Assembly (NCBI GenBank): GCA_903935335.1
Contig: CAIZRG010000008.1
Span: 23,466-87,465 of the forward strand
From: Oligoflexia bacterium
GTDB taxonomy: Bacteria > Bdellovibrionota > UBA1018
DNA length: 64,000 nucleotides
Direction: 5' to 3'
Positions 3,728 through 44,884 of this stretch are shown here, piece by piece. Under the pieces are notes generated by a model. That model had not been told where the DNA came from. It saw nothing but the letters and a program-made list of their open reading frames with translations, and ran no database searches. The position numbers and the translations under genes are program-made. Positions within the stretch are counted from its first letter, which is position 1; each line of letters begins with the position of its first letter.

Positions 3728-5107
3728 ATGAAAATCAAAGGCACTCATTTTTTTTGGGTTTTGAACTTTTCAGGATTCCTGATTTTATTTGGATCAAAAA
3801 AATCAATTGCAATTGATCAGATTCCTTATAATACTCGCTTATCCCCTTTCAGTGCGATTGGAACTACCGTTCGAGGAGACATTAGAACCGTAGGCATGTC
3901 AGGTGCTACTGTAGGACTAGGAGATACATTTATTGCCTCCCTAGATAATCCTGCAGGACTAGCCATGGGTTTGAATGGTGCGGATTCAAATTTTGCTACA
4001 AATATCATCTATGATCGCAATATTCAAAATTTTGACAACAGTCTATCCACTTATGAATTAGGCGTAGCTTTTAATCAATATCCATGGGGATTTAGCTTTG
4101 GATATATCTCCCCTTACAGAGAAGGCCAAACCTATTCTTTGATGAACTCTCCAGACATGCCTAAAACACTGAGTGTCTCCACCCGAGAATTTCATTTCTC
4201 TGTAGCTCACTTATTTTTTAAAAATCGATTGTCTGTTGGACTCAGTTTGATCCTAGGGCAATCGGTTCAGGAAATTCTGTCCGTGACAAACAGTCAAGAA
4301 GTCAACGCTCAATCTTACTCATTAGGTTCAACAATAGGAGTGTCTTACCAACTGCCCCATCGGATCCTTTTTGGACTGAGTTATCGATTACCTATGTCTT
4401 ATCCAGGAGGAGGTTTTTCTCAAAACACTCCTGAACTTCCAAACTTTCTTCAACCTCTTGAAACTCCGGGAAGACTTGGCATAGGCGTTGGATGGATACC
4501 CAACCGATTTTTTAGGACTGATTTCACTGGATTTATCTTAGGGAGCACTCCACGAACTACCCTACTCCGTGATGAGGCTACTTCCATAGGGGAAAACATC
4601 ACTTTCCAGCCTCGTCTTGGGGCAGCCTATGATTTCTTAGACTTTAAAGAGCTCAAAGGCACTCTCTTTGGTGGCACTTACTATGAAACATCCAGAGCCG
4701 AAAAAACCTCAGACCGTTTTCATCAAACCGTGGGCATGGAGATCAAACCTTGGATCTTTAATCTGGGATGGGGTCTTGATATTGCTTCTGGTTATCGCAA
4801 TTATATTGTTTCATTGGGTATCAATCCTTTTAAGATCATGTCCAAAATAGATCTCATCCCTACCCCCTGGCACCCTCGATACGCAAAAGCATTTCCACCT
4901 CCTTTTTATCAATCGGATCAAGGATTAAGCAGACCTCTGGTGAAACACTGGGTCGCTCACGATCCAGATCTTAACCCCATTCAGATTGGCCTCAATATCC
5001 CGCATAATATTGAAAAAAAATCAGAAAAAATTAGCCAAGCGATTTCAGATATTCTCTCTCCTCCAAAGAAAAAAAGGAAACTGGCTCATCCCAAGAAATT
5101 AGAATAA
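3728..5107 (+). CDS. Secreted / outer-membrane beta-barrel-like protein (FadL/OmpP1-like N-terminal motif) with basic C-terminal tail
   Basis: It has a signal-like N-terminus. VGMSGATVGLGDTFIASLDNPAGLA resembles, from memory, the G-M-G-G-A...NPAGL motif of FadL-type barrels. An alternating strand-like pattern follows. The last roughly 90 aa look non-barrel and end SPPKKKRKLAHPKKLE. Confidence 0.45.
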   Translation: MKIKGTHFFWVLNFSGFLILFGSKKSIAIDQIPYNTRLSPFSAIGTTVRGDIRTVGMSGATVGLGDTFIASLDNPAGLAMGLNGADSNFATNIIYDRNIQNFDNSLSTYELGVAFNQYPWGFSFGYISPYREGQTYSLMNSPDMPKTLSVSTREFHFSVAHLFFKNRLSVGLSLILGQSVQEILSVTNSQEVNAQSYSLGSTIGVSYQLPHRILFGLSYRLPMSYPGGGFSQNTPELPNFLQPLETPGRLGIGVGWIPNRFFRTDFTGFILGSTPRTTLLRDEATSIGENITFQPRLGAAYDFLDFKELKGTLFGGTYYETSRAEKTSDRFHQTVGMEIKPWIFNLGWGLDIASGYRNYIVSLGINPFKIMSKIDLIPTPWHPRYAKAFPPPFYQSDQGLSRPLVKHWVAHDPDLNPIQIGLNIPHNIEKKSEKISQAISDILSPPKKKRKLAHPKKLE

Positions 5108-5116
5108 AGAAGACTC

Positions 5117-44500: not shown

Positions 44501-44884
44501 AGCTATGGCAAGACTTCCGCTCATTTGACTGCTAACTCCGGTAAATTAGACGTGCTGGAAGTCTTATATGAAAAGGATCCTGAACTTATGAAAGAAAAAG
44601 ACAAGCATGGCAATACTCCAGCTCATTTAGCTGCCATCTCAGGTGAGTGGGAAGTCGTCAAATTCTTTGCTCAGAAAACTCCTGAACTGATGAAAGAAAA
44701 AAATATAGATGGGAATACTTTAGCGCATTACGCTGCATCCTCAGGGCAGTTAAAAGTAGTCCGACTCTTAGCTCAAAAAGCTCCTCAACTTATGAAAGAA
44801 AAAAATACAGATGGGGATACTCCTGCCGATTTAGCTTCCAACTCAGGCAAGTTAGATATTGTGAAATTCTTAGCTCAATTCTAG
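41597..44884 (+). CDS. Large secreted protein: ~700-aa uncharacterised N-terminal region + 12 ankyrin repeats
   Basis: Signal-like N-terminus VVCFLVFFFFLLSKAFA. The C-terminal 396 aa are 12 x 33-aa units such as KDKHGNTPAHLAAISGEWEVVKFLAQKAPELMKE (ANK consensus G-x-TPLH-x-A-x-x-G-x-x-x-[IV]-V-x-x-L). Confidence 0.85.
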   Translation: MPQVVCFLVFFFFLLSKAFAEISYLDLKGVHEQIQPKYAQLSPILGYTLLGTRSLENRRFYGNYGQSSQGYFCSQKSSKEGSIAALLKANKDCPLDTTSELIQRLFPSQDGVNFVANQIPSDPISHLKAETIGKVLELISGIEEKDLSDSSQSDRITQAIQDILFKDIHPQGFKGYLTSKQQQLRGKVKTCKKEKKESILQQIEDIENLLKALESSESHPKQGLEGFNERTASPGIGTEKDFQAIAQMIVNSLKESRLAPGLYPKYLPEQTLMAYFLKKANTKEDLLALLSGMPKTLKTPEILIKGSHSRNAFIFTRFDPKEYNLALLSSNPKQTAHTWVTQPEELIFAVMEDRLRAKPLSPIFSYASAAHSSLGREMYADCGETALRNFFNIVSYDQKNGQFNTDHLTVLNGKNFVRVNPKLIEFYKTHHNPSQGIKQKVHNSWSENIVSNHSGVKYLRGRPPQCEIDSGIDNIMNIIGHLLFHQAQKDSPIKKATSRSEKLDKLCQSVSREGFNLTWSQENRDQVNDHDTEVDIQFKVNDYPSFIWHFKKNHFYIEDLTNKKDSWIDLAGQELAHMLTQSNYTDPSHLLKQELIKQMLPWFSNVNILNLARQDSTLHLRENLIYALPNHSNDSRLTVLKEMFKSNKIERDHINQAIYKTLLKLPLEDPGTKDRVVRMAPSDLTVKEFETLTHRVPNLPLQGHFAVYSGQLELVEFLAQKAPESMEEKDRTGKTPAHYAASSGQLDVLEILNAKVPKSMKVKSSYKKTPAHYAASSGQLEVVQLLAEKTPKSMKAKDKHGNTPAHLAAISSEWEIVKFLGQQSPELMKEKNIDGNTPVHYIAASGEWNLVKFLAQNNPELMKEKNIGWNNLVNYSVALGEWDVVKLLARNNPELMKEKDRHGNTPAHLAVISGEREIVKFLARKAPESIEIKDRHGNTPAHLAAQLGEWEIVKLLAQKAPGSMKVKNSYGKTSAHLTANSGKLDVLEVLYEKDPELMKEKDKHGNTPAHLAAISGEWEVVKFFAQKTPELMKEKNIDGNTLAHYAASSGQLKVVRLLAQKAPQLMKEKNTDGDTPADLASNSGKLDIVKFLAQF
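43700..44881 (+). repeat. Tandem 99-nt coding repeats (ankyrin units) with long identical stretches
   Basis: For example, aaagatagacatggcaatactcccgctcatttagctg occurs at 44291 and 44393. Also tcctgaactgatgaaagaaaaaaatatagatgggaatact occurs near 44068 and 44689. Confidence 0.85.

Follow-up and report, generated by a model that had tools for sequence, protein, structure and literature searches.

Bacteria interacting with eukaryotic cells are well known to carry eukaryote-like proteins (PMC7542358). In Legionella, Coxiella, Chlamydiae and Amoebophilus, the effectors include kinases, ubiquitin-ligase fingers and ankyrin proteins, the genes of which are scattered singly, are lineage-specific and have their closest relatives among eukaryotes. 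The same traits recur in a 64-kb stretch of DNA from contig CAIZRG010000008.1 (hereafter the window, meaning this whole stretch), which encodes three proteins with predicted export leaders: a CMGC-like (CDK/MAPK-like) protein kinase (8596..9780, + strand), a beta-solenoid protein with a RING-like finger (36045..36863, - strand) and a 1095-residue protein carrying 12 ankyrin repeats (41597..44884, + strand). The window departs from the Legionella-type repertoires in belonging to a member of the Bdellovibrionota, in having Sec-type leaders rather than type III or type IV secretion system (T3SS, T4SS) signals, and in showing no injection system. We put at roughly one half the probability that the three exported proteins are aimed at eukaryotic cells, most plausibly protist grazers or hosts.

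Within the phylum, the case that comes closest is Bd3460 of Bdellovibrio bacteriovorus, an ankyrin protein that confers self-immunity against the predator's own DD-endopeptidases. Judged by its description, it has in common with the window the phylum, a Sec leader and ankyrin repeats in a periplasm-directed protein, but it is small and consists of ankyrin repeats only, whereas the window protein carries 12 of them after a conserved domain of 680 residues. Nothing in the described predation machinery of Bdellovibrio corresponds to the RING finger or to the CMGC kinase. A literature search combining Bdellovibrionota or Oligoflexia with ankyrin, ubiquitin and effectors returned only sponge and coral surveys of metagenome-assembled genomes (MAGs), and none of the literature found describes a CMGC-type bacterial effector. 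We met no description of a protein joining a leader, a beta-solenoid and a RING finger, although no literature search was aimed at this architecture.

Three probable exported proteins with eukaryote-type modules

The kinase open reading frame (ORF) matches the Pfam family Pkinase (PF00069) with an E value of 7.6e-45 and 153.8 bits, against a cut-off of 31.7. Its longest form has 394 residues, while gene callers put the start at M5 (position 8608), giving 390 residues; database entries hold the M5-start or a truncated form, and the 394-residue form is without an exact match. The best 60 matches in the PDB are all CDKs or MAPKs, the first being PfPK5 (E 5.5e-28), and one CDK2/CDC28-like entry among them is also deposited as 'Rhodanese family protein'. 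In a search of 5.8 billion proteins, the only named relatives were the eukaryotic CDK20, CDK2 and MAPK, at about 30% identity. The CMGC-like kinase proposed by the first-pass annotation, which was made from the DNA letters and their translations, is thus borne out.

The catalytic domain (8800..9666, + strand), delimited by motif positions and the PfPK5 alignment, retains the catalytic residues G75xGxxG80, K97, E122, D200, N205 and D218. The HRD position reads H198-S-D200 (HSD, non-RD) and the DFG position D218-F-E (DFE). Membership of the CMGC group is indicated by the closest relatives, by W241YRAPE with the CMGC arginine and by an insert after helix G ('ICGSPSESNWPEGRGRQNYKKY'), the last two lying inside the PfPK5 alignment. 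Arginine, insert and catalytic residues are common to the eukaryotic CMGC kinases (CDK2, CDK7, CDK20, PfPK5, MAPK), from which the window protein differs by its identity of only about 30%, by HSD, DFE and an SDEE stretch, by its signal peptide and by its bacterial context. The marks of a CDK proper are absent: there is no PSTAIRE-type helix (the sequence reads AAMRFLRELNV) and no activation-loop threonine or tyrosine. The activation loop, HSDEEICTQWYRAPE, is acidic (SDEE) and, in our reading of the alignment, has an aspartate at the position of CDK2 T160. Because of the non-RD motif, the DFE and the acidic loop, the kinase is predicted to be constitutively active and is probably cyclin-independent.

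None of the curated bacterial kinase families in NCBIfam (PknB/Stk1, LegK1, MAD6, PglW and others) scored above its cut-off, the best being PknB_PASTA_kin with 80.3 bits against 450. LegK1 reached 27.9 bits against 550, so that the protein is CMGC/CDK-like and, unlike the LegK kinases of Legionella, not LegK-like. Its signal-peptide-like leader (8608..8679, + strand) reads MRTH / LFFLWALFLSQITL / PHTTWA|GP, with a hydrophobicity of 2.06.

A GTDB genome scan returned no relatives of this kinase. When 1.84 billion representatives were searched exhaustively with HMMER, only a few closer proteins emerged, which form a small leader-bearing clade (leaders are present in P0289, P0002, P0291 and P0326). 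P0289 consists of leader and kinase; P0002/P0281, P0291 and P0326 add a conserved domain of about 170 residues, followed by a Pro- or Gly-rich tail. In P0002, P0291 and P0326 the motifs 'DGDCGFHAV' and 'NHY' of this extra domain are invariant, and its PDB matches are exclusively OTU deubiquitinases (4 of 4 and 11 of 11), namely EschOTU and nairovirus OTUs, but weak (E 0.03-0.9). The likeness to bacterial OTUs (EschOTU, the Legionella Lot proteins, ChlaOTU) resides in the Cys-loop 'D-G-D-C-x-F-H-A' and the His-loop 'N-H-Y', the difference being that the domain of the kinase relatives sits behind a CMGC-like kinase. The window kinase itself is without the OTU-like domain. The contigs of its relatives have a bacterial housekeeping gene content, and at least one carrier (L091) looks unrelated to the lineage of the window, judging from a single comparison of HflX, about 42% identical as against about 70% within the clade.

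Two further observations concern the kinase. In three lake assemblies (L081, L082, L083), window positions 8080-9610 (1531 bp) recur at 100% identity between flanks that both differ; a DDE_Tnp_1 transposase gene follows position 9610 and truncates the kinase at about residue 338, and the neighbouring SLT ORF is broken at 8080. No insertion-sequence end repeats were found in L081. Another leader-bearing CMGC-like kinase, P0083 (625 residues; L174 10001-11878), is encoded between alanine racemase and mevalonate-pathway genes of a bacterial MAG, in which a T3SS/flagellar-type ATPase gene lies 4 kb away.

The RING protein gene matches B_solenoid_ydck (1.4e-13) and zf-RING_2 (1.3e-05) in Pfam. Its product is arranged as leader, Cys-rich motif, YdcK-type beta-solenoid and C-terminal finger. 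The leader (36783..36863, - strand) reads MNSIHLGLR / YLSLVLSCLFPFLII / SA|DA. The solenoid (36331..36600, - strand) comprises about 14 hexapeptide repeats, detected by a repeat search through their 18-nt spacing and by Pfam and NCBIfam YdcK matches. The finger (36096..36227, - strand), located by cysteine positions, homologue alignment and profile matches, is a C4C4 variant with eight ligands in cross-brace spacing (C213-x2-C216-x14-C231-x-C233-x4-C238-x2-C241-x10-C252-x2-C255-R256). Four homologues share the leader, solenoid and RING architecture and have canonical C3HC4 fingers; in all four, a hydrophobic leader comes first and the conserved Cys-rich motif follows, and they carry RING models on record.

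A family profile built from the five fingers, the window copy included, matches RNF4 at E 5.6e-13, as well as RING1B, TRIM21, BRCA1 and others; it reached 187 PDB sequences at E<=0.01, and the 60 matches listed are all RING domains. The window finger has the residues that contact E2 enzymes, that is, the isoleucine of CxIC (I215), the proline of CPxC and the linchpin R256, with I215, the Cys ligands and R256 invariant, and its ending 'CPTCRK' is identical to that of RNF4. By its cross-brace, its CxIC isoleucine and the linchpin arginine of 'CPTCRK', the window protein resembles E3 ligases of the RNF4, RING1B and TRIM type and the bacterial RING or U-box mimics (NleG, LubX). In contrast to the RNF4/NleG type, the window protein has a C4C4 finger with an x4 spacing, fused to a YdcK-type solenoid, a Cys-rich motif and a leader. 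The RING-like finger suggested earlier therefore stands on its eight ligands, its E2-contact residues and the family profile leading to RNF4, the single copy scoring below the Pfam cut-off. Pfam and NCBIfam scans of the neighbours revealed no E1, E2 or JAB gene, so that the gene does not belong to a ubiquitin-like operon of the bacterial kind. On a lake-metagenome contig (L087), two paralogous leader, beta-solenoid and RING genes lie 4 kb apart (369-1559 and 4332-5279), which hints at a local expansion of the family.

The third protein joins a conserved N-terminal domain to an ankyrin array (43691..44881, + strand) of about 12 repeats with a period of 34 residues or 102 nt; TRF reports 9.2 copies of period 102 with 70% matches. 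The Ank_2 match (E 4.7e-60, 200.6 bits against a cut-off of 27.3) agrees with the 12 repeats counted in the first-pass annotation, and the best NCBIfam matches of the array are Dot/Icm Ank effectors, far below cut-off. The leader (41597..41656, + strand; MPQ / VVCFLVFFFFLLS / KAFA|EISY) has a hydrophobicity of 3.38, and in the family consensus of the N-terminal domain 'AEIS' follows directly after a variable hydrophobic N-terminus.

This domain (41657..43666, + strand; about 670-680 residues), delimited by homologue alignment and an AlphaFold2 model, has no Pfam, NCBIfam or PDB profile match. About 39 homologues were found, five with ankyrin repeats and most with another, ankyrin-free C-terminus; one member is named Bdellovibrionia and one is encoded elsewhere on the 1.1-Mb contig of a relative (L003). 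D381-C382, R388 and Y458 are invariant in the alignment and H554 nearly so. The model has a mean confidence score (pLDDT) of 87.8 overall and 94.4 for residues 355-570. Foldseek searches of the PDB with the N-domain (700 residues) and with the Cys/His sub-domain (216 residues) gave nothing better than E 0.2. As a guess from the model, which shows a Cys at a helix N-terminus and a His on a sheet, residues 355-570 might be papain-like. Taken with the family, the ankyrin array would be the swapped-in module of an exported protein that is itself native and probably an enzyme. As a eukaryote-type module the array holds, while a simple import from eukaryotes does not fit a domain family that is found in relatives mostly without ankyrin repeats.

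Further observations were made on this protein, its family and the contigs of relatives. A suspected likeness of the ankyrin-free C-termini to DUF1566/Lcl domains found no support in precomputed Pfam data. In one metagenomic relative (L096 12638-15603), an N-domain homologue stands in divergent orientation beside the SLT (lytic transglycosylase) gene downstream of tgt, which is the position of the kinase in the window; exported proteins may thus alternate at this site. Two adjacent genes on the 1.1-Mb contig of the relative (L085 15987-17822) have faint C2H2 zinc-finger matches. A near-consensus sigma-70-like site (TTGAAA-16-TATAAT, 11/12; 41559-41586) ends 10 nt before the ATG of the ankyrin gene, which may then have a very short leader or none on its transcript; promoter-like sites are not enriched across the region overall.

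The three proteins, and a fourth encoded at 3728..5107 that had been counted with them, each show an n-region, a hydrophobic core and a small -3/-1 site in a heuristic reading of the N-terminus, in agreement with the Sec-type leaders predicted at first pass. Homologues in the kinase clade and in the RING family have leaders as well, and the N-domain consensus retains a variable hydrophobic N-terminus. By a hydrophobicity heuristic, signal-like leaders occur in about 15 of 48 window ORFs; because they are this common, a leader alone is not distinctive.

Genomic setting and organism

The best IF-2 matches among 185,579 species representatives reach 72% identity and are all MAGs labelled Oligoflexia, Bacteriovoracaceae, Bdellovibrionia or Bdellovibrionales, with 56% to cultured Bdellovibrio. 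NusA (87%), HflX (73%) and GltX (70%) likewise match MAGs labelled Oligoflexia or Bacteriovoracaceae. These marker proteins provide the taxonomic placement that had been proposed as a check and make the organism a member of the Bdellovibrionota and not a bacterium of the Legionella, Coxiella, Rickettsiales or Chlamydia type. Identical copies of the genes recur in lake-water metagenome assemblies from ENA and Logan, in records with names beginning 'BUCK21', and several of the closest MAGs by IF-2 bear Swedish lake names. The source habitat is probably fresh water, in stratified lakes; going by their names, the 'BUCK21' records would belong to the stratified-lake dataset of Buck et al. (PMC8121793). 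A free-living predator or a grazing-resistant bacterium fits this picture as well as the host-associated one suggested at first pass.

Gene order was compared with 80 infB loci of relatives (about 1.3 Mb) and, in addition, with 0.86 Mb of tgt loci. The backbone gltX-rimP-nusA-infB-rbfA-truB...hflX-suhB-like keeps its order in the relatives. The RING gene lies in an islet of 3.1 kb (34.9-37.6 kb) together with two ORFs. The first of these (34900..36036, + strand) is lineage-specific and combines a signal-like leader with a Pro/Thr-rich stretch and a coiled coil; its GC content is 0.31 as against about 0.41 for the window, and it has no Pfam or NCBIfam family and no match in the syntenic relatives. 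The other (36984..37643, + strand) encodes a small outer-membrane beta-barrel (OMP_b-brl 9.6e-08), also without a match in relatives. Neither these two ORFs nor the RING and ankyrin genes have a match in the 80 syntenic loci, and the same holds for the kinase; the tgt loci contain no RING or ankyrin-repeat match and a single weak kinase match. In L003, the gap between truB and the next gene measures 667 bp, against 3.1 kb in the window. The genes flanking the ankyrin gene (L003 18472-19266 and 19391-19984) adjoin each other there, 125 bp apart, from which it follows that the ankyrin gene is an insertion. On this comparison of gene order, the RING islet and the ankyrin gene are lineage-specific insertions. 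Synteny around tgt is poorly conserved in relatives, and the kinase site does not lend itself to the same judgement.

The three genes are flanked neither by repeats, direct or inverted, nor by scars of mobile elements. Their GC content of 0.39-0.44 matches the window (about 0.41), and so does that of third codon positions (GC3). The agreement with the backbone indicates genes that are long resident and not contamination and, with the absence of scars, insertions that are old. These data bear directly on whether eukaryotic DNA was joined to a bacterial contig by a chimeric assembly or by contamination, an idea prompted by the metagenomic source and by a kinase with eukaryotic nearest named relatives. 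Besides the GC content, such an origin is contradicted by the lack of introns, the bacterial-type leaders and the tight packing between bacterial genes. Moreover, the SLT-kinase junction recurs at 100% identity in three other assemblies and an independent assembly record has the same hflX-suhB-ANK-DsbA context, which leaves an artefact highly improbable.

The same region could alternatively be viewed as a collection of decaying or functionless remnants of old horizontal transfers with no common function, which we regard as unlikely. It would account for genes that lie unlinked at 8.6, 36 and 41.6 kb without any mobile-element scar in common, for the degenerate motifs (DFE, HSD and Cys for His in the RING), for the natural kinase allele truncated in lake assemblies and for the fact that one of the four modules first claimed, PKKKRK, is due to chance. 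It is harder to reconcile with three intact and long ORFs, with retained catalytic and zinc-ligand residues and with a GC3 that matches the genome. Furthermore, homologues in other genomes keep the same leader and architecture, which argues for selection on each gene, and three such genes in 64 kb contrast with zero in the syntenic loci of relatives (about 1.3 Mb) and one weak kinase match in the 0.86 Mb of tgt loci.

Possible targets of the exported proteins

Should the proteins be aimed at eukaryotic cells, the following sequence of events can be proposed. Three lineage-specific genes would have been acquired separately, each at its own site among conserved housekeeping genes, with products that combine a cleavable Sec-type leader with a module having known partners only in eukaryotic cells. 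The proteins would first be exported across the inner membrane by Sec, then be released by type II secretion (T2SS), vesicles or lysis, and finally act on or within a eukaryotic cell, for which a protist that grazes on the bacterium, or is its host, would be the most plausible candidate. In that cell, host proteins would be the substrates of the kinase, and the RING finger, which has retained the residues by which RING E3s bind E2~ubiquitin, could hijack host E2 enzymes. In the third protein, the usual C-terminal module would have been replaced by 12 ankyrin repeats, and the array might serve to attach the N-domain, with its cysteine, to a protein of the host.

A eukaryotic target is favoured by the E2-contact residues of the RING finger, by the OTU-like domains of the kinase relatives and by the lineage-specific insertion. 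Regarding delivery, Pfam and NCBIfam scans covering the window ORFs of at least 100 residues (a few overlapping shadow ORFs were left out) found no secretion-system gene, in line with the earlier remark that no T3SS, T4SS or type VI secretion system (T6SS) gene is visible. It is a reasonable inference from the leaders that the route would be Sec followed by T2SS or outer membrane vesicles. An export that begins with Sec matches the reliance of the phylum on Sec and T2SS, as in B. bacteriovorus.

The modules may, however, be of eukaryotic derivation and now serve predation on bacteria, self-protection or envelope biology, with the ankyrin and RING proteins acting as binding scaffolds and the kinase modifying proteins of the prey or of the cell itself. 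The affiliation with the Bdellovibrionota suits this possibility, as does the fact that Sec leaders, common in the window, direct proteins into the periplasm, a compartment exploited by predators. It would also be consistent with the SLT gene that adjoins the kinase gene, and with an N-domain family that occurs in relatives mostly without ankyrin repeats and has a member, at L096, beside an SLT lytic transglycosylase gene. Bd3460 offers an example of ankyrin self-immunity in B. bacteriovorus. A precedent for a secreted eukaryote-like protein turned against bacteria is the ubiquitin-like toxin of Bacteroides fragilis (PMC5705921).

Against this stand the E2-contact residues of the RING finger, which have no known bacterial partner, and the fusion of kinase relatives to OTU-like domains. 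The three genes were not found in syntenic relatives, presumably predators as well. The kinase clade is present as well in the apparently unrelated bacterium L091 (on the single HflX comparison), for which a shared eukaryotic target is better suited than a lineage-specific predation device. A use among bacteria is a serious rival and the main one, on balance rather improbable though less so than decay; if it were true, the interest would lie in the reuse of eukaryote-derived modules in warfare between bacteria.

The proposal of eukaryotic targets also has to contend with a number of points that weigh against it. Some concern the modules. The window finger alone scores 25.8 bits with zf-RING_2, just below the Pfam cut-off of 27.3, and has a Cys for the His together with the unusual x4 between ligands 4 and 5. 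The passage of a zinc-binding, Cys-rich RING through Sec into an oxidising periplasm is awkward and poses a real difficulty. To our knowledge, known RING/U-box effectors are injected by T3SS or T4SS. The Pfam OTU model has no match to the extra domain of the kinase relatives, whose OTU similarity is never significant. With DFE for DFG and HSD for HRD, the activity of the window kinase is putative, and its gene may be dispensable, since one lake allele is truncated by transposase-bearing sequence. Ankyrin repeats occur in free-living bacteria too, and they are absent from most members of the N-domain family, itself native to the lineage. Other points concern the organism. The Bdellovibrionota are known for preying on bacteria, not on eukaryotes, we know of no eukaryotic partner of this lineage, and the samples are apparently lake water. 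Finally, the view of the genome is that of the 64-kb window.

A bolder form of the proposal of eukaryotic targets is that this freshwater lineage now attacks eukaryotic cells such as protists, in addition to bacteria or in place of them, by means of effectors that are exported by Sec and not injected. These would include a RING-solenoid ubiquitin ligase, a constitutively active CDK-like kinase of a family with OTU deubiquitinase fusions in other members, and an ankyrin-targeted enzyme with a fold absent from the PDB. This we advance tentatively, as something rather doubtful. If it were true, the Bdellovibrionota, textbook predators of bacteria, would also manipulate eukaryotic cells, and such effectors could use the general Sec pathway rather than an injection apparatus. 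The window in any case draws attention to three uncharacterised families: a leader with a CMGC kinase, with or without an OTU-like domain; a leader with a beta-solenoid and a RING finger; and a 680-residue Asp-Cys/His domain without a PDB relative.

Other genes of the window

The earlier list of four candidate proteins is reduced to the kinase, RING and ankyrin proteins. The fourth is a conserved exported protein (3728..5107, + strand), 42% identical to a homologue in L044; weak hints in the window protein point to an outer-membrane barrel of the FadL/PorV type with an extension of about 90 residues. The stretch PKKKRK (5063-5080) is indeed present, in a variable basic tail, and had been taken for a eukaryote-type module. 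As a classical monopartite nuclear localization signal of the SV40 type it was rejected: a K/R run of at least five arises somewhere in the window proteins in 34.5% of per-protein shuffles, and the tail of the L044 homologue is without PKKKRK.

Two additional genes had been associated with the candidates. The ORF at 2410..3660 (+ strand) encodes a Ste24/M48A-type membrane metalloprotease (Peptidase_M48_N 1.1e-54, Peptidase_M48 7.1e-32, HEIGH at residue 274), as had been recognized. The CinA-M48 pair is conserved in a relative (L094) at 58% identity, and since the protease keeps its place next to CinA it is an ordinary native gene and not an effector, which removes it from the constellation. 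The product of 5117-6358, described as a PIG-V-like glycosyltransferase, has no Mannosyl_trans2 or related match, no other Pfam match (E<=10) and no NCBIfam match (E<=0.01); it is a polytopic membrane protein and nothing more specific, so that the description is withdrawn.

Otherwise, the Pfam and NCBIfam scans depict the window as ordinary core chromosome, and the kinase, RING and ankyrin genes each stand singly between housekeeping genes, as had been noted. The genes recognized comprise those for a Bax1-I/YccA protein, a thioesterase, CinA, the M48 protease, tgt and the SLT lytic transglycosylase; an acyltransferase, DUF3443/DUF2844 proteins, bioA-D-F-B, a ferredoxin and a HiPIP; gltX, rimP-nusA-infB-rbfA-truB, hflX, an inositol monophosphatase-like gene and a DsbA-like gene; and those for a KpsF-like SIS/CBS protein, pyruvate kinase, mutS, mutY and an amidase. 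Two tRNAs are also encoded.

Three further observations concern other ORFs. A giant ORF (59261-64000, + strand) of more than 1580 residues, which continues past the window end, begins with a leader or lipobox-like N-terminus and matches fn3, Big_1/Invasin_D3 and NHL, so that its product looks like an adhesin-type surface protein. The membrane protein encoded at 423-1166 (- strand) belongs to the Bax1-I (BI-1/YccA) family, the name of which sounds eukaryotic; the family is widespread in bacteria. Lastly, the longest ORF of tgt overlaps the end of the membrane-protein ORF 5117-6358 by about 100 nt (6256-6358), and because the TGT domain begins only at residue 49, the true start of tgt is probably located further downstream.

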